Shown here: positions 4,100 to 28,591 of the stretch, one piece after another
How positions within the stretch are numbered: position 1 is the first letter of the stretch
Layout: every line of letters begins with the position of its first letter
DNA from: Acidimicrobiia bacterium
GTDB lineage: Bacteria > Actinomycetota > Acidimicrobiia > Spongiisociales > ZC4RG35
Length of the DNA: 64,000 nt
Direction of reading: 5' to 3'
Assembly: GCA_035550735.1 (NCBI GenBank)
Contig: DASZOM010000041.1
Coordinates: 4,216-68,215, forward strand
Made by a program: the position numbers and the translations under genes
The notes under the pieces: model-generated
The model's input: the letters and a program-made list of their open reading frames with translations, nothing else
What the model was told of the DNA's origin: nothing
Databases searched by the model: none

Positions 4100-5295
4100 G
4101 CGCCCCACCCCGTCCGGATCTGGGTCGCGTCCTCGGTGCCGGCGCGCACCCGGAAGATGGCCCGAATCAGTGCCGGCGCGGCCACGAAGATGACGATGAG
4201 GGCCTGGAGCACTACCACGAGGTCGATCGGAACCTGGGCGGCGCCCTGCATCTCGCGCCCGCCGGCGGTGAGTGCGCCGAACAGGACCGCTGCCCAGGCG
4301 ACACCGACCGGGTTGGACCGCCCGAGGAGCGCCACGGTGATCGAGTCGAAGCCGACCGACCCGGGGAGGGCCGGAGTGGCCTTGTAGGGCGCCAACCCCA
4401 TCACCTGGCTGGCTCCGGCGACCCCGGCCAGACCTCCCGCCAAGGCCATGGCGAGGGTGACGATCACCGATACGTTCATCCCGGCGTAACCACCGGCCTG
4501 AGGATTGGAGCCGACCGCCCGGAACTCGAAGCCGATCGAGGACCGATAGAGGAGCCAGTGCACCAGGAAGACCGCAGCGAGTGCGATCAGAAACCCGAGA
4601 TGGACCCGGTTCTGCGCTCCGAAGATGTGGGGCATGTGCGCCGTCTCCGCCAGGGCGGCCGACTGCGGGTTGTTGCGCCCGGGATCCTGGAGGACCTCGG
4701 TGGTGAGGAGCCACTGCACCAGGAAGAGGGCGATGAAGTTGCCCATGATCGTGGTGATCACCTCGTGGGCCCCGGTCCGGGCCTTGAGCAACCCGGCGAG
4801 GCCGCCCCAGACCATCCCGCCGACCAGACCGGCGAGGACGGCGAGAGGGATGTGGATGAAGCCGGGTGCGGTCACATAGATGCCCACGTAGGTGGCGGCG
4901 ATGCCCCCGATGAACATCTGGCCCTGGGCCCCGATGTTGAAGAGACCCGCCCGGAACCCGAGCGCGATCCCGAGACCGGCCAGCAACAGGGGCGTGGTGG
5001 CGAAGAGGGTCTCGGAGATGGCCTTCACCGAGCCGACCGACCCCCGGAACAAGGCACGGTAGGACGTGGCGACCTCCCGCCACATGTTGGACAGTGCCGT
5101 CGGCGTGTCCGAGAACAGGAGGGGGACGTTCTGGACGTCGGAGAAGGCGATGATCAGCGCCCCGATCACCAGGGCGACGACGAAGGCCAGGGTGGGCAGG
5201 AGGACGGCCCGGGCAGCCGAGGTGCCGACACCGGCCAGGCGCGACATCCAGTCGGTTGCCGGCGGCCTGATCTCGGGCTCTTTGACGTCGGTCAT
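4096..5295 (-). CDS. ABC transporter permease (BMP/nucleoside-type ABC, first permease)
   Basis: Hydrophobic multi-TM protein with the branched-chain/ribose-type permease signature. ATGA overlap with the ATPase stop. Confidence 0.85.
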   Translation of the reverse strand: MTDVKEPEIRPPATDWMSRLAGVGTSAARAVLLPTLAFVVALVIGALIIAFSDVQNVPLLFSDTPTALSNMWREVATSYRALFRGSVGSVKAISETLFATTPLLLAGLGIALGFRAGLFNIGAQGQMFIGGIAATYVGIYVTAPGFIHIPLAVLAGLVGGMVWGGLAGLLKARTGAHEVITTIMGNFIALFLVQWLLTTEVLQDPGRNNPQSAALAETAHMPHIFGAQNRVHLGFLIALAAVFLVHWLLYRSSIGFEFRAVGSNPQAGGYAGMNVSVIVTLAMALAGGLAGVAGASQVMGLAPYKATPALPGSVGFDSITVALLGRSNPVGVAWAAVLFGALTAGGREMQGAAQVPIDLVVVLQALIVIFVAAPALIRAIFRVRAGTEDATQIRTGWGA

Positions 5296-16263: not shown

Positions 16264-17214
16264 TCAGAGGACGAGAGGGATGAGCCTCGACCTCACCATT
16301 TCCCGGTAGGCCCGATAGCCCGGGAAGTGCATCCGCAACCGTCTCTCCTCGTAGTCGGCCTTCACCCAGAGATAGGCGAGCAACATCAGGGAGACGGCCA
16401 ACGCCGACAGGCTTCCCAGCAGCAGCCCGGCCCCCATCGCCATGAGCACGATGCCGCCATAGATGGGATGGCGGACGAGGCCGTAGGAACCAACGGTCAC
16501 CAGGCGAGTCTGCGAACGCGGGAGCGGGCTCATCGTCAGCGAAGGGCCGAGCCGACGGCTGGCATCGAGAGCCAGCCCGACACCGAAGACGGCCAGGGCG
16601 GCGCCCATCAGCGTCGAGACCGTCACCCGGTCCGGCAGGGAGCCCTCGAGCCAGAGGACGGTGATCAACAGGGCGATGATGGCGAGCTGGCCGGCGACCA
16701 GTGCTACTGCCGGCAATCGCGGCCTGGGAGGCAGCCAGCGGCGGGCGAGGAGATCGACATCCTGATCGTCCACCTCCTCCAGGGCGACGGACGCAGAGAG
16801 CTCGTCGGACACCGGAGCCTCGGGCCAGACCTCGACGAGGGGGCGGAGCACGAACTCACGCTCCGTGGCTCGGGGATGGGGGACGGTCAGCTGCTGGGTG
16901 TGGATTGGAGGTCCGTCGGATGACACGATGTCGAGGTCGAGCGTCCTCGGCCCCCAGCGCACGTCTCGTTCCCGGCCCTCCTGCTGCTCGATCTCGTGGA
17001 GACGGGCGAGGAGCTCGAAGACGTCGAGCTCGGAGTCGAGGGCCACGACCGCGTTGAGGTAGGGGCCCTGCTCGGGCCCGCCGACCGGAGCGGTCTCGTA
17101 CAACGACGACACCACCATGCCGGCTCCGATCCGGGTCAGGGCGGCATGGGCCCTCTCCAGGTGGGCGAGACGGTCGCCGACGTTGGAGCCGAGACCGATG
17201 GCGTAGCGGGTCAC
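16264..17214 (-). CDS. folK: HPPK (FolK) fused to a C-terminal polytopic ICMT/PEMT-like methyltransferase-family membrane domain
   Basis: N-terminus MTRYAIGLGSNVGDRLAHL...TEREFVLRPL is HPPK. The C-terminal ~150 aa have 4 TM segments with RHPIYGG and EERRLRMHFPGYRAYREMV motifs in one continuous frame. GTG start overlaps the folB stop. Confidence 0.75.
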   Translation of the reverse strand: MTRYAIGLGSNVGDRLAHLERAHAALTRIGAGMVVSSLYETAPVGGPEQGPYLNAVVALDSELDVFELLARLHEIEQQEGRERDVRWGPRTLDLDIVSSDGPPIHTQQLTVPHPRATEREFVLRPLVEVWPEAPVSDELSASVALEEVDDQDVDLLARRWLPPRPRLPAVALVAGQLAIIALLITVLWLEGSLPDRVTVSTLMGAALAVFGVGLALDASRRLGPSLTMSPLPRSQTRLVTVGSYGLVRHPIYGGIVLMAMGAGLLLGSLSALAVSLMLLAYLWVKADYEERRLRMHFPGYRAYREMVRSRLIPLVL

Positions 17215-17570
17215 CGGCTCCGTTCGATGGTGACCGACACATCCTCGAAGACCATGTCGATGGGTGCGTCCGGCTTGTGGATGGTCACCACCGAACGCTG
17301 CACGCCGGGATGGGCCATCACCGCGTCGGCGACACGGGCGGCGACGGTCTCGATCAGCTTGTAGGAGGCGGAGCCGACCACCTCGCGTATCTCCAGGGCG
17401 AGCTCACCGTAGTCGAGGGCGTCGGAGAGGTCGTCACTCTCCCCCGGAGTCACCAGGTCGGTGTAGGCGACGACGTCGACCTTGAAGACCTGGGCCCGCT
17501 CCTGTTCGTGGGACAACACGCCATGACGGGCGAGGACCTCGATGCCCCGCAGCTCGATCCGGTCGTTCAA
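17211..17570 (-). CDS. folB: dihydroneopterin aldolase
   Basis: 119 aa with typical FolB sequence (IELRGIEVLARHGV...KVDV). TTG start overlaps the upstream stop (TTGA). Confidence 0.85.
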   Translation of the reverse strand: MNDRIELRGIEVLARHGVLSHEQERAQVFKVDVVAYTDLVTPGESDDLSDALDYGELALEIREVVGSASYKLIETVAARVADAVMAHPGVQRSVVTIHKPDAPIDMVFEDVSVTIERSR

Positions 17571-18061
17571 CGCCCGCTGGCCTCGGGGATGAGAGAGCGG
17601 CCCTCCGGGCCCAGCGCCCGGCCCAGGATCTGCTGGATCAGTGCGAGGGCGAGGATCGGATCGTCCACCATGCCCGAGTCGACCAGATACCCCCCGAGGA
17701 GGCCTCCGATGGTGTCGTCGATGGTCTCCCGATGGATGAGCACCCTGGCGTGATTGCGGCTCAGCGCCTTGTCGAGGGTGGCGAAGAACCGCTTCACGTC
17801 ACTGGTTGCGACCGGGTTGGCGAGGGGGACCGAGTAGGTGGCGATCCCGGCCTGCCGATAGGCGGCGAGATTCTGGTTGCCGGGCAGCATGGAGACGATG
17901 GTGTTGATCTCTGCTTCCTCCACCAACCAGGTGATCTCCTCCTCGCGACGCACCTTCCGGTGCTGGAATCCAGAGCCCCCCACCCTGTCAGATACTGCGA
18001 GCTTGTCGGAGATGACCCAGGTGAACCCACGCGGTTTCAACCCTGCGACCATGCGTCCCAT
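17567..18061 (-). CDS. hypothetical protein with dual-specificity-phosphatase-like fold but no cysteine (HRETIDDT in place of HCxxGxxR), inserted between folP and folB
   Basis: Pattern VEEAEINTIVSML ... AGIATYSVPL ... ARVLIHRETIDDTIGGLLGGYLV follows the DSP domain layout. The protein contains no Cys at all. Confidence 0.45.
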   Translation of the reverse strand: MGRMVAGLKPRGFTWVISDKLAVSDRVGGSGFQHRKVRREEEITWLVEEAEINTIVSMLPGNQNLAAYRQAGIATYSVPLANPVATSDVKRFFATLDKALSRNHARVLIHRETIDDTIGGLLGGYLVDSGMVDDPILALALIQQILGRALGPEGRSLIPEASGR

Positions 18062-18906
18062 TACTGGTTGGTCACGATAGCGGCCGCCACTCCCAGCGCA
18101 TCCTTGGAAAGGGCAACGTCGTGGACCCGAAAAAGCCTGGCGCCACGGGCATAGGCGAGGGCATTGGCGATGGTGCCGGCCCGATCGCGGTGCTCTCGAG
18201 TGTCATTGGCCACGAGCGAGCCCAGGAACCCCTTGCGGGAGACCCCGACCATCACCGGGAGCCCGTGGGCGACGAGCCGGTCGAGGTTGGCGAGAAGAGT
18301 CAGGCTGTGGTGTGCCCGCTTGCCGAACCCGAGCCCGGGGTCGATGACGATCCGGCGCTCGTCGACACCGGACACCCGCAGTGCGGCCACCCGATCGAGG
18401 AGAAACCCGGTCACCTCGGCGACCACGTCTTCGTATCTCGGCTCGATGTGCATGTCGACCGGTGTGCCTTGCATGTGCATGACGACGACACCACAGTCCG
18501 ACGTGGCCACGACCTCGATCATCTCCGGGTCCCTGAACCCGGTCACGTCGTTGATCGCCACCGCCCCCGCAGCCAGCCCCTCTCTGGCGACCCCCGGCTT
18601 GTAGGTGTCGACGCTGACGGGAACCCCGGCCGTCACCAGACCGCCCACCACCGGGATGAGGCGGCGCAACTCCTCGGCTTCGGGGACCGGTCTCGCCCCC
18701 GGACGCGTCGACTCGCCGCCGACGTCGACGAGGGCGGCCCCCTGCGTCATCATCTCGAGACCGCGGGCGATGGCGACATCGGGGGCGAGGTACTCGCCAC
18801 CGTCGGAGAACGAGTCGGGCGTCACGTTGACCACCCCGACCAGGGCGCCGCCCCGCAACGAGATCGGGCCCCCGGATACCGACCAGGTCACGCCTGGCCC
18901 GGTCAT
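18061..18906 (-). CDS. folP: dihydropteroate synthase
   Basis: GVVNVTPDSFSDGG, DVGGESTRPG and GVSRKGF motifs. Start MTGPG at 18906 overlaps the folE stop (ATGA); the upstream 63 codons of the table ORF are run-on. Confidence 0.9.
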   Translation of the reverse strand: MTGPGVTWSVSGGPISLRGGALVGVVNVTPDSFSDGGEYLAPDVAIARGLEMMTQGAALVDVGGESTRPGARPVPEAEELRRLIPVVGGLVTAGVPVSVDTYKPGVAREGLAAGAVAINDVTGFRDPEMIEVVATSDCGVVVMHMQGTPVDMHIEPRYEDVVAEVTGFLLDRVAALRVSGVDERRIVIDPGLGFGKRAHHSLTLLANLDRLVAHGLPVMVGVSRKGFLGSLVANDTREHRDRAGTIANALAYARGARLFRVHDVALSKDALGVAAAIVTNQ

Positions 18907-19481
18907 CAGCTCCTCGTGCCGAAGAGCAATGACATCGTCTCGGCGCGGGTGGCCGGATTGGCCTCCATGATCCCGCGAACCGCCGAGGTGACCGTGAGCG
19001 CCCCAGGCTTTCTCACTCCGCGCATCGACATGCAGAGATGCTCGGCTTCGACCACCACCATCACCCCAAGCGGCTTGAGGCGGTCGTTGAGGCAATCGGC
19101 GACCTGGGCGGTGAGCCGCTCCTGCATCTGGGGCCGTCTGGCGTAGCCCTCGACGAGACGGGCCAGCTTGGAGAGACCGGTGACCCTTCCGTCAGGGATG
19201 TAGGCGACGTGGGCCTTGCCGTGGAAGGGCACGAAATGATGCTCGCACATCGAGTAGAAGGGGATCTCGCGCACCATGACGACCTCCTGGTAGTGCTCGT
19301 CCCCGAAGAACGCGTCGACCAGGTCTCCGGGATCGGTGTGCAGGCCCTCGAAGACCTCGGCGTAGAAGCGGGCCACCCGCTCCGGTGTGTCGACCAACCC
19401 CTCACGGGTGGGGTCCTCCCCGATGGCCTCGATTATCTCCCGAACCGCCTTCTCGATGCGGCCGGTGTCGATGTCCGTCAT
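18906..19481 (-). CDS. folE: GTP cyclohydrolase I
   Basis: Typical FolE sequence including [18 protein letters not shown]. Confidence 0.95.
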
Positions 19482-19537
19482 TGCAAGGGGAAACTAAGAC
19501 CGTTCCGACGGTATTTCCGCTCATATCGGATTGGGGG

Positions 19538-19616
19538 TTGACACTGACATCATCATGACTGTATGGTGACATCATTCTGACATCAGATCGGTGTCAGAAG
19601 TGACACCGAGGAGACG
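19538..19616 (+). promoter_or_regulatory. promoter-like TTGACA-N18-TATGGT followed by an array of TGACA/TGTCA half-sites and palindromes (TCTGACA-N9-TGTCAGA; GTGTCA-gaag-TGACAC) and GAGGAG RBS
   Basis: Five TGACA and one TGTCA within 70 bp, lying between divergent folE and the leader/RHH operon. Confidence 0.5.
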
Positions 19617-19619
19617 CTA

Positions 19620-19703
19620 ATGTTGGTGACCATGATCCCCAACCAGATCGAGGCCCTGATGGAGCAGCGCATCCGCAACTACCGACCGGCACCACGACGC
19701 TGA
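19620..19703 (+). CDS. putative 27-aa leader peptide (MLVTMIPNQIEALMEQRIRNYRPAPRR), translationally coupled to next ORF
   Basis: GAGGAG 6 nt upstream of ATG, and high GC3. Stop TGA overlaps the ATG of the downstream ORF (TGATG). Confidence 0.3.
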   Translation: MLVTMIPNQIEALMEQRIRNYRPAPRR

Positions 19704-20167
19704 TGCAGCTCTCCCACGCAATAACCAATCTCGAGACGGCCGTGGAGACCCAGCTTCGGGTAGCCGGGGCGGAGATCGCAGAGGCCGGCGCCCAGTTGAT
19801 GGCTGCGCTGCGGCCGGCGATCAACCAGACCATGATGGAAGTGGTCACCATGGCCGTCGCCGAGATCTCCAGTCAGCTGGAGACACAGGCCATCGACATC
19901 AAACTCGTGGACGGCGATCCCGAGCTGGTCGTGCGCGAGGACCTCTCCGCAGTCCCTCCTCCCCCGCCCCCGCCTCCTCCCGGGAGCGACGATGACTCCG
20001 AGGCACGAATCACGGTGCGGCTTCCCGGATATCTCAAGGACCTGATCTCGATCGAGGCGGAGAACGCCGGTGATTCGATCAACTCCTATGTCGTCGAACT
20101 GTTGAGCAACAAGGCACGCCGTCGTCGTGCATCGGGCAATTCGACCAAGACCACGATCGAGCTGTGA
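19703..20167 (+). CDS. ribbon-helix-helix (CopG/Arc-like) domain protein with N-terminal helical domain and poly-Pro linker
   Basis: C-terminal ITVRLPGYLKDLISIEAENAGDSINSYVVELLSNK fits the RHH beta-alpha-alpha pattern; a PPPPPPPPP linker precedes it. Stop overlaps the GTG of the DUF4097 gene (GTGA). Confidence 0.5.
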   Translation: MQLSHAITNLETAVETQLRVAGAEIAEAGAQLMAALRPAINQTMMEVVTMAVAEISSQLETQAIDIKLVDGDPELVVREDLSAVPPPPPPPPPGSDDDSEARITVRLPGYLKDLISIEAENAGDSINSYVVELLSNKARRRRASGNSTKTTIEL

Positions 20168-20919
20168 TCCACGAGACATTCTCGGTCGACGGTCTTCCGG
20201 ATCTCGAGGTTCGCATCGAATCCGGGCGACTCGAAGTGCACGAGGGGGCTCCCGGGAAGGTGGATGTCACCGTCGAGACCAGGCTTCCCGGTTTCATCGT
20301 CGAGCAGCGGGGCAACTCGATCTTGGTTTCCTCCGACAAGGACGCAGGGTGGTTGTCCCGCGGCTCGGCTTACGTCGTCATCGAGACGCCCCCGGGAAGC
20401 GATCTCAAGGCGAGTGTTGCCTCCGCCCCGATCACGATCGACGTCGACATGGAGAAGGTGGAGATCAAGAGCGCGTCGGGGGACATGGAGATCGAGCGGG
20501 TCAAGGACCTGATCGTCAGGAGCGCCAGCGGCGACGTCCACGTCGAGAAGGTGGGCCGGGCCCTGAGGGCAACCACGGCTTCAGGCGACGTCCGGGTGGA
20601 GTCGGCCAGCGGCTCGGTCGCGGTCGCGACTGCCTCCGGAGACGTGGAGATAGAGAAATCGGACGCGACCGTCGAGATGAACACTGCCTCCGGAGACGCC
20701 TACATCCACGAGTTCACCGGCCGGAGCGCCAACTTCAAGGCGATGTCGGGGAGCATCGACCTGGGGATCCCCACGGGAACGACCGTCGAGCTCGACGTCA
20801 ACACCCTCTCCGGGAAGGTGCGTCTCCCCGACCCGGAGCCCAGCCGTGGCACTCCCACCCGTCACATGGCGATCCGCGCCAAGCTGGTCTCGGGTGACTT
20901 CACGATCGAGCGGGCCTGA
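20164..20919 (+). CDS. DUF4097 ('toastrack', LiaF-like) domain protein
   Basis: Repeated beta-strand units ASGDVHVEK / ASGDVRVES / ASGDVEIEK / ASGDAYIHE typical of DUF4097 putative adhesin/toastrack proteins. Confidence 0.7.
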   Translation: MIHETFSVDGLPDLEVRIESGRLEVHEGAPGKVDVTVETRLPGFIVEQRGNSILVSSDKDAGWLSRGSAYVVIETPPGSDLKASVASAPITIDVDMEKVEIKSASGDMEIERVKDLIVRSASGDVHVEKVGRALRATTASGDVRVESASGSVAVATASGDVEIEKSDATVEMNTASGDAYIHEFTGRSANFKAMSGSIDLGIPTGTTVELDVNTLSGKVRLPDPEPSRGTPTRHMAIRAKLVSGDFTIERA

Positions 20920-20958
20920 CCCCCACTCCTGGGCCGGGCTGCGAATCCTGCCTCGGCT

Positions 20959-22956
20959 TCAGGCCTCTGCGGGACGTCCCTTGGTACGGGGGAGCTTCCG
21001 ACCCAGTTTGAGGGACTCGGTTACTTCCTCACCCTCCTGGTCGTCCTTCGCCACTGCGGCGGCGACTTCCTCGCGCTGCTGCGGCAAGACCGGGTTGTCG
21101 GGGTACTTGATACGCAACGATCCGTCGAAGGCGTGTTCCCACTTGGGCACGTCGTGGAAGATCTCGGCGACCTCCTCGCGGTCCACGGTCTCCCTGTCGA
21201 GGAGGGACGCCACCATCCTCTCCAACGCATCCTGATGATGTTCGAGGATGGAGCGCGCCTCCTCGTGAGCGGCGTTGATCAGCTTGCGGACCTCGGCGTC
21301 GATGAATGCGGCGACCTCGTCGGAGTAGTCTTGCTGTCTCGAGTAGTCACGGCCTAAGAAGACCTCGCCATTCGGCTTCCCGTACTGCATCGGCCCCAGC
21401 TCGTCGCTCATGCCGTACTCCATGACCATGCGCCGGGCGAGGGTGGTGGCCTTCTCGATGTCGTCTGCGGCGCCGGTGGAGGGGTCGGCAAAGATCAGCT
21501 CCTCGGCGGTGCGGCCACCGAGCAGCATGGCGAGCCGGTCGACCAGCTCGCTGCGCCGCGAGATGTACTTGTCATGGGTGGGCAGCGACAGGGTGTGGCC
21601 GAGTGAGCGGCCCCGGGAGACGATCGTGATCTTGTGCACCGGGTCGGAGTTGGGGAGGGCATAGCCGACCAGGGCGTGGCCGGTCTCGTGATAGGCGATG
21701 ACCTTGCGCTCCTCCTCGGAGAGGACTCGCGTCTTGCGCTCGGGCCCTGCGATGACACGGTCGATGGCCTCCTCGAGCTCGACCATGGTGATCTGCTTGC
21801 TGCGCTTGCGGGCGGCGAGCAGCGCTGCCTCGTTGATCAGGTTGGCCAGGTCTGCGCCGGTGAAGCCGGGGGTCCGCCTGGCAAGGACGGCCAGGTCGAT
21901 CTCGTCGGCGAGGGGCTTGCCCTTGGCGTGGACGGCGAGGATCGCCTCCCGTCCCTCCACGTCGGGAGCGTCGACGGTGATCTGACGGTCGAAGCGCCCG
22001 GGGCGAAGCAGGGCAGGGTCGAGGATGTCGGGCCGGTTGGTCGCCGCCATCACGATCACGCCGGTGTTGCCCTCGAACCCGTCCAACTCGACCAGGAGCT
22101 GGTTGAGGGTCTGCTCCCTCTCGTCGTGGCCACCTCCGAGCCCGGCGCCTCGATGCCGTCCGACGGCATCGATCTCGTCGATGAAGACGATGGCGGGCGC
22201 GCTCTGCTTCGCCTGCTCGAAGAGGTCACGAACACGCGCGGCACCGACGCCAACGAACATCTCGACGAAGTCCGAGCCTGAGATCGACATGAAGGGCACA
22301 CCGGCCTCGCCGGCCACCGCCCGGGCGAGCAGGGTCTTGCCGGTGCCGGGAGGGCCGAAGAGCAGGACGCCCTTGGGGATCTTGGCGCCCATCTGGCGGT
22401 AGCGATCCGGGTTGGCGAGGAAGTCCTTGATCTCCTCCAGCTCCTCTTTGGCCTCGAGGAGACCGGCCACGTCGTCGAATGTGACCTTGGGCTGCTCCTT
22501 GCCGACGAGCTTGGCCCGGGACTTGCCGAACTGCATGACCCGGTTCCCCCCACCCTGCATCTGCATGAAGATGAAGACCATGAATCCGAGCAGGAAGAGC
22601 CAGGGGAGGAACCCGATCAGCAGCTCCCAGAAGCCTGCGGGCTCCTCATTGACATCCCAATTGGTCCCGGTCCGCTCCAGGGTGTCGGTGAGCTGGGTCT
22701 CGAAGCCCTCGACATAGCTGGCCACTTGGTCGAAGGTGCCCTCTTCTGCGTCGCTGCCGATGGTACGGCCCTGCGCCCGCTTGGATCGGGCGAGGAGGAC
22801 GACCTCCTCGTACTCGCCGTCCTCGACGTTCTGGACGAACTGGGAGATGGTGATCTCCTCGGGCCCGGCGACCTGATCGAACCACCAGGAGAAGAGGATG
22901 GCGACGAGGATGATCGACATCCCGTAGACGATGAGGGTTCGCAGGGTGCGGTTCAC
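20959..22956 (-). CDS. ftsH: ATP-dependent zinc metalloprotease FtsH
   Basis: Two N-terminal TM helices, AAA module GPPGTGKT and protease HEXGH (HETGHAL). GTG start. Confidence 0.95.
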
Positions 22957-27928: not shown

Positions 27929-28560
27929 GTCGCGATCTCCAGGATCTTGGTGACCATGTCGTCCACGGTCAGAGAGCCGTCAAGCAGCACGACCTTCGGG
28001 TCGGTGCGCGCCAGATCGAGATAGGCCTCCCTCACCGCGGCCTGGAACTCGAGACCTTCGCGCCCGATCCGGTCGGGCCGATCCTGACGCTCCAAGGCCA
28101 CGCCGGGCTCGACGTCGAGGACGAAGACATGGTCGGGGACGACCCCGTCCAGACCCGTCTCGTTGATCCTTCGCACCCTGTCCTCTCCCAGGCCCCGTGC
28201 CCGGCCCTGGTAGGTGATCGACGAGTAATAGGTCCGGTCGGAGACCACCCAGCGGCCCTCGGCGAGCGCCGGAGCGATCACCTCCCGGGCCAACTCGGCG
28301 CGCTGGGCGGCGAAGAGGAAGACTTCGGCCCAATCGTCGAGCCGGTCCGAGTCGAGGAGCAAGGCCCGCACCGCCTCTCCCAGGTCGGTCCCACCCGGCT
28401 CCCGGACCAGGATGGCGGCGGTCCCGGCATCCGTGAGACGGTCGACGAGGGCCTTGGCGACGGTGCTCTTGCCGCTGCCGTCGACGCCCTCCAGGGCGAT
28501 GTACCTGCTCACTGCGGACACGGTAACCAGGCCTCGTGACACGAAGACAGAGATTGACAT
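27925..28560 (-). CDS. tmk: thymidylate kinase
   Basis: P-loop LEGVDGSGKST and the DRY-like region. Start MSISV at 28560 (a GTG at VSRY is also possible); the table ORF start at 28668 is a run-on. Confidence 0.8.
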   Translation of the reverse strand: MSISVFVSRGLVTVSAVSRYIALEGVDGSGKSTVAKALVDRLTDAGTAAILVREPGGTDLGEAVRALLLDSDRLDDWAEVFLFAAQRAELAREVIAPALAEGRWVVSDRTYYSSITYQGRARGLGEDRVRRINETGLDGVVPDHVFVLDVEPGVALERQDRPDRIGREGLEFQAAVREAYLDLARTDPKVVLLDGSLTVDDMVTKILEIAT

Positions 28561-28591
28561 AGGGCCTGGGCATGGTGTCAACTGCGGGCCA

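Follow-up and report, generated by a model that had tools for sequence, protein, structure and literature searches.

Proteins with the beta-helical Toastrack domain (DUF4097) are widespread and have repeatedly been tied to envelope stress and antibiotic responses, as in the cases of LiaF and VraT, and the route by which their information reaches DNA is poorly understood. Text S2.4 of Ravi et al. (2024; mSystems 9:e00847-23, PMC11237479) mentions an actinobacterial Toastrack/ATP-binding cassette (ABC) transporter operon in which a ribbon-helix-helix (RHH) protein replaces the GntR regulator; as far as its main text and Text S2.4 go, the paper proposes that RHH proteins of Toastrack operons are their transcriptional regulators and that Toastrack is a docking platform coupling signals to transcription. 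The present analysis concerns what appears to be a minimal, soluble version of such a system, found in a stretch of 64,000 nucleotides from an Acidimicrobiia bacterium (contig DASZOM010000041.1, positions 4,216 to 68,215; the window). Between folE and ftsH, a three-gene operon on the plus strand encodes a micro-protein (small open reading frame, sORF), an RHH protein (ORF1), and a toastrack protein (ORF2). Overall, the module is probably best explained as an autorepressed chromosomal operon of Acidimicrobiia, in which the RHH repressor acts on its own boxes and is tuned by its toastrack partner.

The locus resembles the RHH-Toastrack-ABC operon of Text S2.4 (Ravi et al., 2024) in that an RHH gene adjoins a Toastrack gene in an actinobacterium, and Streptomyces homologues of ORF1 (27%–33% identity, 82%–94% coverage) head the order RHH, DUF4097, ABC ATPase, and permease. 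Unlike that operon, it has convergent ftsH after ORF2, with no ABC ATPase or permease gene, and a conserved micro-ORF led by a Shine-Dalgarno (SD) sequence before the RHH gene; its toastrack protein lacks a membrane anchor and a SHOCT-like domain. The original prediction, made by a model from the sequence of the window, had called the pairing with an RHH regulator undescribed, which is too strong in view of this operon. The module does not represent a new principle; the micro-protein is new. Neither the main text nor Text S2.4 of Ravi et al. (2024) describes the operator, the small ORF, or the N-terminal domain of ORF1, no description of them was found in the literature outside subscription-only papers, and the operator, the N-domain fold, and the micro-ORF are apparently undescribed so far.

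Four other kinds of system invite comparison. The PadR-HAAS-Toastrack arrangement, as far as it is presented by Ravi et al. (2024), likewise combines a small DNA-binding domain, an alpha-helical signaling domain, and Toastrack; in the present module, however, the DNA-binding domain is RHH and not a PadR winged helix-turn-helix, and the helical domain forms one protein with the DNA-binding domain instead of with Toastrack. No match to PadR or DUF1700/HAAS was found at E ≤ 1 when the module proteins were searched against Pfam. In the LiaF, LiaG, VraT, and YvlB proteins of the Firmicutes envelope stress response, a beta-helical Toastrack domain is also coupled to a transcriptional regulator, but ORF2 has neither the LiaI-LiaF transmembrane segment nor a PspC anchor, scores far below the LiaG cut-off, and is accompanied by an RHH protein in place of LiaR or VraR. 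No two-component genes flank the module, and no pspA or liaH is found nearby. The antitoxins HicB and DUF1778 (TacA/AtaR/KacA) provide the best sequence matches of ORF1 residues ∼95–140, and HicB shares the layout of an N-terminal partner-binding domain followed by a C-terminal RHH; there is no HicA or GNAT toxin gene here, the neighbor encodes DUF4097 in every locus, the alpha-alpha-beta-beta N-domain has no Pfam match, and the location is syntenic with inheritance that looks vertical. The autorepressors Arc, Mnt, CopG, MetJ, and omega have the same ∼45-residue beta-alpha-alpha domain with an alternating basic and polar strand (R-I-T-V-R in ORF1) and short direct or inverted repeat boxes over the regulator's own promoter. 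In the Arc operator, 11-bp spacing sets adjacent dimers on one face of the DNA. ORF1 differs from these repressors in that its RHH is C-terminal, after a Pro-rich linker and an 80-residue N-domain without known fold relative, in that up to six boxes are present, and in that the obligatory partner gene encodes a toastrack protein.

Results and Discussion

A Row of In-Phase Boxes Covers the Promoter

The sequence upstream of the sORF contains a sigma-70-type promoter (Table 1) that matches 10 of 12 consensus positions and is the only promoter-like site in 19300–21100; its TTGAC and TAT.GT elements are conserved in homologous loci. Transcription would start near 19574. Superimposed on this promoter is a row of boxes, each an 8-bp pseudo-palindrome of the form TGA-YR-TCA (TGACATCA or TGATGTCA, the "orientation" being a matter of the central dinucleotide only), separated by 3-bp spacers and therefore repeated with a period of 11 bp. 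Besides the three exact TGACATCA octamers starting at 19545, 19567, and 19578, no other occurs in the 64-kb window, and these three also form the only box pairs 11 or 22 bp apart; no such pair was found in 30 shuffles. No other in-phase box pair, and hence no sign of a wider regulon, was found in the window. The original prediction had described this region as an array of TGACA half-sites. The cluster stands, with six copies of TGACA in 19539–19605 versus 51 in the whole 64 kb, both strands counted, and it is operator-like; its sites are more aptly viewed as 8-bp boxes that recur every 11 bp. A second TGACA cluster at 28537–28580 (three motifs, one of them TTGACA) lies upstream of a topoisomerase-I-like ORF (MPKSLVIVESPTKAKTISAFLG), contains no TGACATCA, and is not in the 11-bp register; it was rejected as an operator and is probably the ordinary promoter region of the topA-like ORF.

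The less perfect boxes follow the same register. The region of box 2 ("gactgtatgg") is conserved across loci, the position of box 3 is the most conserved box position across the 81 upstream regions compared below, and relatives have TGATGTCA or CGATGTCA at the position of box 5. The motif "gtgacac" of the weak sixth box recurs in close relatives only. As the centers of the boxes are 11 bp apart, they would lie on one face of the DNA, and the row spans the −35/−10 spacer, the transcription start, and part of the 5′ untranslated region (UTR), which suggests that the operon represses itself. The proposal of an autoregulated module without assigned function is supported by this operator array over the promoter. 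The promoter of the divergent folE operon probably lies at least 25 bp from the first box, judging from two blocks, TAGTTT and GGAAATA, that are conserved; the fol genes might be co-regulated, but this has no support.

The Boxes Covary with the Beta-Strand of ORF1

Of loci with an ORF1 homologue, 80 genome loci were recovered and four added from exact look-ups, giving 84. For the operator, 81 non-identical upstream regions were compared with control windows from the same loci. The most enriched upstream 7-mers were TGACATC and GACATCA, present in 95% and 94% of the 81 regions, versus 8% of control windows. With up to one mismatch to the 8-mer allowed and both orientations counted, the upstream regions held on average 3.5 boxes, with box-to-box distances overwhelmingly of 11, 22, 33, and 44 bp. 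The typical layout has one box in the −35/−10 spacer, followed by two or three boxes that begin directly after the −10 element. Whatever the neighboring genes, the array accompanies the ORF1 gene in five lineages of Actinobacteria and also on plasmids.

The sequence of the box changes together with the predicted DNA-reading strand of ORF1. A strand of the form R-I-T-x-R pairs with TGACATCA and TGACGTCA boxes in Acidimicrobiia, Mycobacteriales, and Gaiellaceae, and R-[IV]-N-[FL]-R pairs with TGGCGCCA and TGGTGCCA boxes in six of the seven Streptomyces and Streptantibioticus loci. The sole R-V-S-L-R protein, from S. cattleyicolor, is accompanied by intermediate boxes (TGACGTCA, TGGCGTCA, and TGAAGCCA). 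In five of the seven Streptomyces and Streptantibioticus loci, boxes stand at −29, −18, and −7 relative to the ATG; the remaining two have a middle box that is shifted or degenerate. The last box in these loci overlaps the start codon, which suggests a leaderless transcript. The change of the box to TGGCGCCA alongside the change of a DNA-facing Thr to Asn points to autoregulation by ORF1. No stronger evidence that ORF1 may bind its own promoter could be obtained here than this covariation, which makes position 104 (Thr or Asn) the predicted specificity residue.

ORF1 Is a Predicted RHH Protein with an N-Terminal Domain

By profile and predicted fold, ORF1 is a member of the RHH superfamily, as the original prediction had proposed for its C terminus. 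In a Pfam hidden Markov model search, residues 102–134 match the RHH part of HicB (E = 2.3e-4, 21.4 bits, cut-off 21), and Arc weakly. A family profile built from 56 ORF1 sequences matches the solved structures of AtaR/TacA/KacA (AtaR 8.7e-5, KacA 2.9e-4) and Arc (3e-3), and also those of AmrZ, VapB26, and Mnt; Arc-like repressor families of PHROG match ORF1 as well. An AlphaFold2 (AF2) model built with the same alignment has a pLDDT of 88.5 and shows, in the RHH region, an extended segment (residues 100–108) followed by helices at 109–122 and 126–140. Foldseek superposed residues ∼100–140 of this model on Arc (1bdv; probability 0.99, target TM-score 0.71), DNA-bound AtaR (0.92), and FitA (root-mean-square deviation of 2.0 over 46 columns). 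R102, T104, and R106 are invariant in an alignment of 12 ORF1 sequences, R102 and R106 also across all 56; the three occupy alternate strand positions and are expected to face the DNA.

The N-terminal 80 residues, two long helices and a beta-hairpin, were modeled confidently. This domain has no Pfam match and no significant fold match in the PDB by Foldseek, and its alpha-alpha-beta-beta fold is not the toxin-binding N-terminal domain of the HicB type. The linker that joins it to the RHH domain is kept as a Pro-rich segment of variable length in ORF1 relatives. Runs of proline codons usually need EF-P for translation. The current family annotation, "HicB family antitoxin," is misleading. The JGI name "HSP20 family chaperone IbpA," given to a 99%-identical protein, was rejected, having no Pfam or NCBIfam support. 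The possibility that the beta-hairpin of ORF1 is a donated toastrack repeat was considered (hhalign probability 9.6%, P = 0.003, aligned to the N-terminal region of ORF2) and was not used.

ORF2 Is a Soluble Toastrack Protein

ORF2 matches Pfam DUF4097 over its full length, with residues 15–248 on profile positions 5–246/247 (E = 6.3e-22, 78.6 bits versus a cut-off of 22.9), which bears out the earlier assignment as a toastrack protein. Its similarity to the Lia families of NCBIfam stays far under their cut-offs (LiaG, 57.8 bits versus 285; LiaF_C, 22.7 versus 57; LiaX, partial similarity). A single-sequence AF2 model is all-beta with a pLDDT of only 65.8, residues 1–70 being below 50. With this model of modest confidence, Foldseek returned the "putative adhesin" 3LJY (probability 0.91), 3LYC, 3JX8, 3PET, and 4OPW, all with E > 0.07. 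Among these, 4OPW is cited as a Toastrack example in the consulted sections of Ravi et al. (2024; PMC11237479).

No membrane segment was predicted by hydropathy in any of the three products, and the maximum hydropathy of ORF2 is 0.70. A role in envelope stress, as had been suggested, is unproven.

The RHH-Toastrack Pair Is Conserved and Old

A word-indexed search yielded 435 ORF1 relatives, and the family counts 432 representatives of clusters at 50% identity; most are full length. The DUF4097 gene lies directly downstream of the ORF1 homologue in all 84 loci, mostly with a stop codon that overlaps the next start, and likewise in the Mycobacteriales and Streptomyces loci. A toastrack gene comes after ORF1 in every locus examined, be it from Acidimicrobiia, Nitriliruptorales, Gaiellaceae, Mycobacteriales, or Streptomyces. 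What is conserved is thus the pair of RHH and toastrack genes, of which the operon in the window is the Acidimicrobiia form. The pair sits at the folE-ftsH junction in about 60 of the 80 recovered genome loci, with identities of ORF1 from 91% down to ∼40% and parallel divergence of folE and ftsH. In Ilumatobacter-like and Nitriliruptorales genomes, it is found elsewhere with varied neighbors; no steady third partner was found in the Ilumatobacter-like loci, where the flanking genes are heterogeneous. Distant members occur in Gaiellaceae and in Mycobacteriales, where thyX is the neighbor, and large plasmids of Streptomyces and Streptantibioticus carry 23 further members. On these plasmids, genes for an ABC ATPase and permease, for P450 and ferredoxin, or others come after the pair; transporter genes do so in two loci only (L090 and L092). 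In the Acidimicrobiia loci, including the window, ORF2 is followed by convergent ftsH and no ABC transporter.

Synteny at the folE-ftsH junction and a G+C content like that of the flanks indicate that the module was not inserted recently. Judged by these sequence comparisons, it is an old, vertically inherited feature of the clade. The word "inserted" in the original prediction, if taken to mean a recent event, is contradicted by the same observations. That prediction had also named an outcome that would count against it, namely the pair occurring universally at this junction with a housekeeping function; the pair is indeed conserved at the junction, in one clade, and no function is assigned to it.

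Several loci show peculiarities. In Gaiellaceae, a 53-codon ORF (L087, 2355–2516) lies between the RHH and toastrack genes, with its stop overlapping the toastrack ATG; it is unrelated to the sORF of Acidimicrobiia. In one locus of Mycobacteriales (L085, 4475–4699), the 233-nt gap between the two genes encodes a degenerate toastrack N terminus (…VVSDRACQPYQFDAPDPPP versus MSDRASQTYTFDTPTPP), which may be the remnant of a duplication or of a shift in start site. Six loci labeled "uncultured Acidobacteriota" (L038, L040, L042, L043, L049, and L057) and one labeled "Boseongicola sp." (L046) have the folP-folE, module, ftsH-hpt synteny of the Acidimicrobiia type. These metagenome-assembled genomes have 76%–90% identity to the ftsH and folE of the window, and it appears that the labels are wrong or the contigs mis-binned.

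A Conserved Micro-ORF Precedes ORF1

The first gene of the operon encodes a peptide with a hydrophobic N terminus, a conserved E11, an E/Q-R-[IVL]-R motif (R17 and R19), and a basic tail. In nearly all Acidimicrobiia and Nitriliruptorales loci, an ORF ends at the start of ORF1 or within ∼15 nt of it. Over a core of 21 residues, E11 and R19 are invariant and R17 nearly so, and the initiator Met stands exactly 16 residues before the R-[IVL]-R motif. All 39 Met-initial cores start with ATG; an SD-like motif precedes 37 of the 39, versus 31 of 75 ORF1 starts. Column entropies of 1.17, 0.73, and 1.47 at the three codon positions and an uncorrected pN/pS of ∼0.54, values from a motif-selected set that inflates conservation, make up a substitution pattern typical of coding sequence. 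The sORF has no match in Pfam, NCBIfam, PHROG, or PADLOC and was not annotated by the gene callers in the records of two loci checked. A duplication of helix 1 of ORF1, which looks alike by eye, was rejected as its origin (hhalign probability 0.5%).

The sORF is absent from the leaderless versions in Streptomyces, Mycobacteriales, and Gaiellaceae. A relocation to the space between the RHH and toastrack genes of these loci was also considered and discarded, no such ORF being conserved there. The sORF is most aptly viewed as encoding a conserved, lineage-specific micro-protein, and its translation would also deliver ribosomes to ORF1. Of the earlier description as a coupled leader peptide, the coupling holds; the product resembles a conserved small protein more than a generic leader. 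In one sub-clade of Acidimicrobiia (L024, L026, L031, L032, L037, L038, L040, L042, and L043), the sORF encodes 46–47 residues. These long versions, which lie upstream of position 5001 in most of these loci and of 3462 in L032, carry a second, C-terminal motif (A..RW.HP[RT]) and stop 12–15 nt before ORF1; the greater length and the second motif suggest that the micro-protein has diversified.

It is conceivable, if rather doubtful, that the product of the sORF is a third subunit that binds the N-domain of ORF1 or the toastrack sheet as an anti- or co-repressor. The module would then be a cytoplasmic sensor of three components that only Acidimicrobiia and Nitriliruptoria have. As the module and the divergent folE operon have their promoter region in common, and as the module keeps a fixed place beside ftsH, such a sensor might couple a signal to folate synthesis or to quality control that depends on FtsH.

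Proposed Mechanism and Alternatives

In the proposed mechanism, RHH dimers of ORF1 would bind the row of 8-bp TGAYRTCA boxes and thereby repress the operon; that they occupy the in-phase boxes cooperatively and act as repressor is very probable. Translation would begin at the SD-led sORF and proceed to ORF1 and on to ORF2 through the overlapping stop and start codons. The N-domain of ORF1 would be a partner or oligomerization module, and soluble ORF2 would tune DNA binding in response to a cytoplasmic or sub-membrane signal, to which tuning the micro-protein might contribute. Contact of the N-domain with the toastrack protein, or its role in higher-order assembly, and the modulation of repression by ORF2 are proposed more tentatively.

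Several points weigh against this interpretation. The covariation of box and strand involves few clades and carries no phylogenetic correction, the Pfam match of the RHH domain is barely over its cut-off (21.4 against 21 bits), and adjacent inverted boxes can fold as RNA too, the 5′ UTR having a z-score of −2.7. The suggested contact between ORF1 and ORF2 is based only on strict co-occurrence and gene overlap, and the similarity of the ORF1 hairpin to the ORF2 profile is weak. Lun1 and Lun2 of the lunaemycin cluster of S. lunaelactis, which are members of the RHH-toastrack pair, are listed as "unknown."

The organization of the operon also recalls a type II toxin-antitoxin pair, in which ORF1 would neutralize ORF2 through its N-domain and control the promoter by conditional cooperativity. 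The closest RHH relatives of ORF1 are antitoxins (AtaR/TacA/KacA, VapB26, and HicB), databases call the homologues "HicB family antitoxin" or "DUF1778," two overlapping genes with the regulator first lie behind an operator that covers the promoter, and copies are carried by large Streptomyces plasmids. We nevertheless consider such a system unlikely. No HicA, GNAT, or other toxin domain is present, the partner DUF4097 is not known to be toxic, and the N-domain fold of ORF1 is not that of HicB. A PADLOC search for defense systems gave no match to the module, and tblastn of 50,697 phage records gave no copy. Unlike mobile toxin-antitoxin loci, the module is syntenic in about 60 genome loci and has host-like G+C content, and the Streptomyces versions run on into ABC transporter genes. 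The antitoxin-like reading offered in the original prediction is accordingly weak. More remote still is the idea that the module is a recently acquired mobile insertion between folE and ftsH. Its strand is opposite to that of the co-directional tilS-hpt-ftsH-folE-folP-folB-folK row, and, by the established gene order, it is absent from the folE/ftsH junction of M. tuberculosis. Against these observations stand the junction shared by about 60 loci, with ORF1 diverging from 91% to ∼40% identity in parallel with folE and ftsH, a G+C content of 0.61–0.67, the same as in the flanks, and the lack of repeats, integrase, or tRNA at the module borders. Synteny and G+C content effectively refute a recent insertion, which is extremely improbable.

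The operator itself could be read in two further ways. Control might act on the RNA, by alternative hairpins of the 5′ UTR and translation of the leader (attenuation or occlusion of the SD), without binding of protein to DNA. The 59-nt 5′ region does fold stably (−20.7 kcal/mol, z-score −2.7), with competing pairings and a hairpin of 9 bp immediately ahead of the SD, and the peptide of the sORF shows both conservation and coupling to ORF1. However, one box or more stands in the −35/−10 spacer, both here and in many relatives, and is therefore not transcribed. A strict period of 11 bp reflects the helix of DNA, and the boxes covary with a residue of ORF1 that would read DNA. In Streptomyces, Mycobacteriales, and Gaiellaceae, the array is kept, with every box upstream of the start codon, although the start codon abuts the last box and neither SD nor sORF is present, which implies leaderless transcripts. 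An Rfam search gave no match at E ≤ 1, and control by RNA seems decidedly unlikely. Alternatively, the boxes might be the site of another, unlinked transcription factor, with ORF1 regulating other genes or being no repressor at all, and the TGACGTCA-like palindromes of some loci do look generic. This is highly unlikely, as the array stays with the ORF1 gene in five lineages and on plasmids, the box sequence changes with the strand residue of ORF1, and there is no other in-phase pair in the 64 kb. Autorepression by ORF1, tuned by ORF2, is thus the reading we prefer. If so, the pair, conserved from Acidimicrobiia to Streptomyces, where members border antibiotic gene clusters and precede ABC exporters, would offer one RHH repressor, one toastrack protein, a clean operator of 8-bp boxes with an 11-bp period, and a predicted specificity residue for study; the conserved 27-codon ORF adds a candidate functional micro-protein.

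Features of the Locus and Neighboring Genes

The coordinates of the module and its immediate neighbors are given in Table 1. The three coupled ORFs were confirmed at the positions first proposed, as were the two flanking genes, both on the minus strand, and the translational coupling, by TGATG at the sORF-ORF1 junction and by GTGA at the ORF1-ORF2 junction, where the TGA stop is overlapped by the GTG start. The intergenic region between divergent folE and ORF1 measures 221 bp, and 39 nt separate the stop codons of ORF2 and ftsH.

Table 1. Positions of the Promoter, Boxes, Genes, and Protein Domains in the Window
Feature	Position	Strand	Description
Sigma-70-type promoter	19538–19567	+	−35 TTGACA (19538–19543), 18-nt spacer, −10 TATGGT (19562–19567)
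Box 1	19545–19552	+	TGACATCA, exact; within −35/−10 spacer
Box 2	19556–19563	+	TGACTGTA, 3 mismatches; in 11-bp register, overlaps −10
Box 3	19567–19574	+	TGACATCA, exact; directly after −10, over the inferred transcription start
Box 4	19578–19585	+	TGACATCA, exact
Box 5	19589–19596	+	CGGTGTCA, TGATGTCA orientation, 2 mismatches
Possible box 6	19600–19607	+	GTGACACC, weak; TGACACC from 19601, one base out of register
SD of sORF	19608–19613	+	GAGGAG, 6 nt before ATG
sORF	19620–19703	+	27 residues, MLVTMIPNQIEALMEQRIRNYRPAPRR; TGA stop shares one base with ORF1 ATG (TGATG)
ORF1	19703–20167	+	154 residues; Pro9 linker, C-terminal RHH domain
ORF1 N-terminal domain	19703–19939	+	Helix 3–21, helix 23–58, beta-hairpin 62–79 (AF2)
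ORF1 inter-domain linker	19940–19999	+	Residues 80–99; nine consecutive proline codons
ORF1 RHH DNA-binding domain	∼20000–20122	+	Residues ∼100–140, predicted
ORF2	20164–20919	+	251 residues; soluble DUF4097 toastrack beta-helix protein; repeated SASGD turns
folE (GTP cyclohydrolase I)	18906–19481	−	Divergent from module; context only, outside module
ftsH	20959–22956	−	Convergent with ORF2; context only, outside module

Two features of the adjacent folate operon were noted in passing. The folK gene (HPPK, Pfam 1e-37; 16264–17214, minus strand) is fused at its C terminus to a membrane methyltransferase domain similar to PEMT/ICMT (7e-10 and 5e-6), a fusion that is also seen in two related loci (L001 and L004). 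Between folB and folP, an ORF of 164 residues (17567–18061, minus strand) without Pfam match is wedged into the operon; it is conserved in L001 and could represent an unassigned folate-pathway or accessory function.

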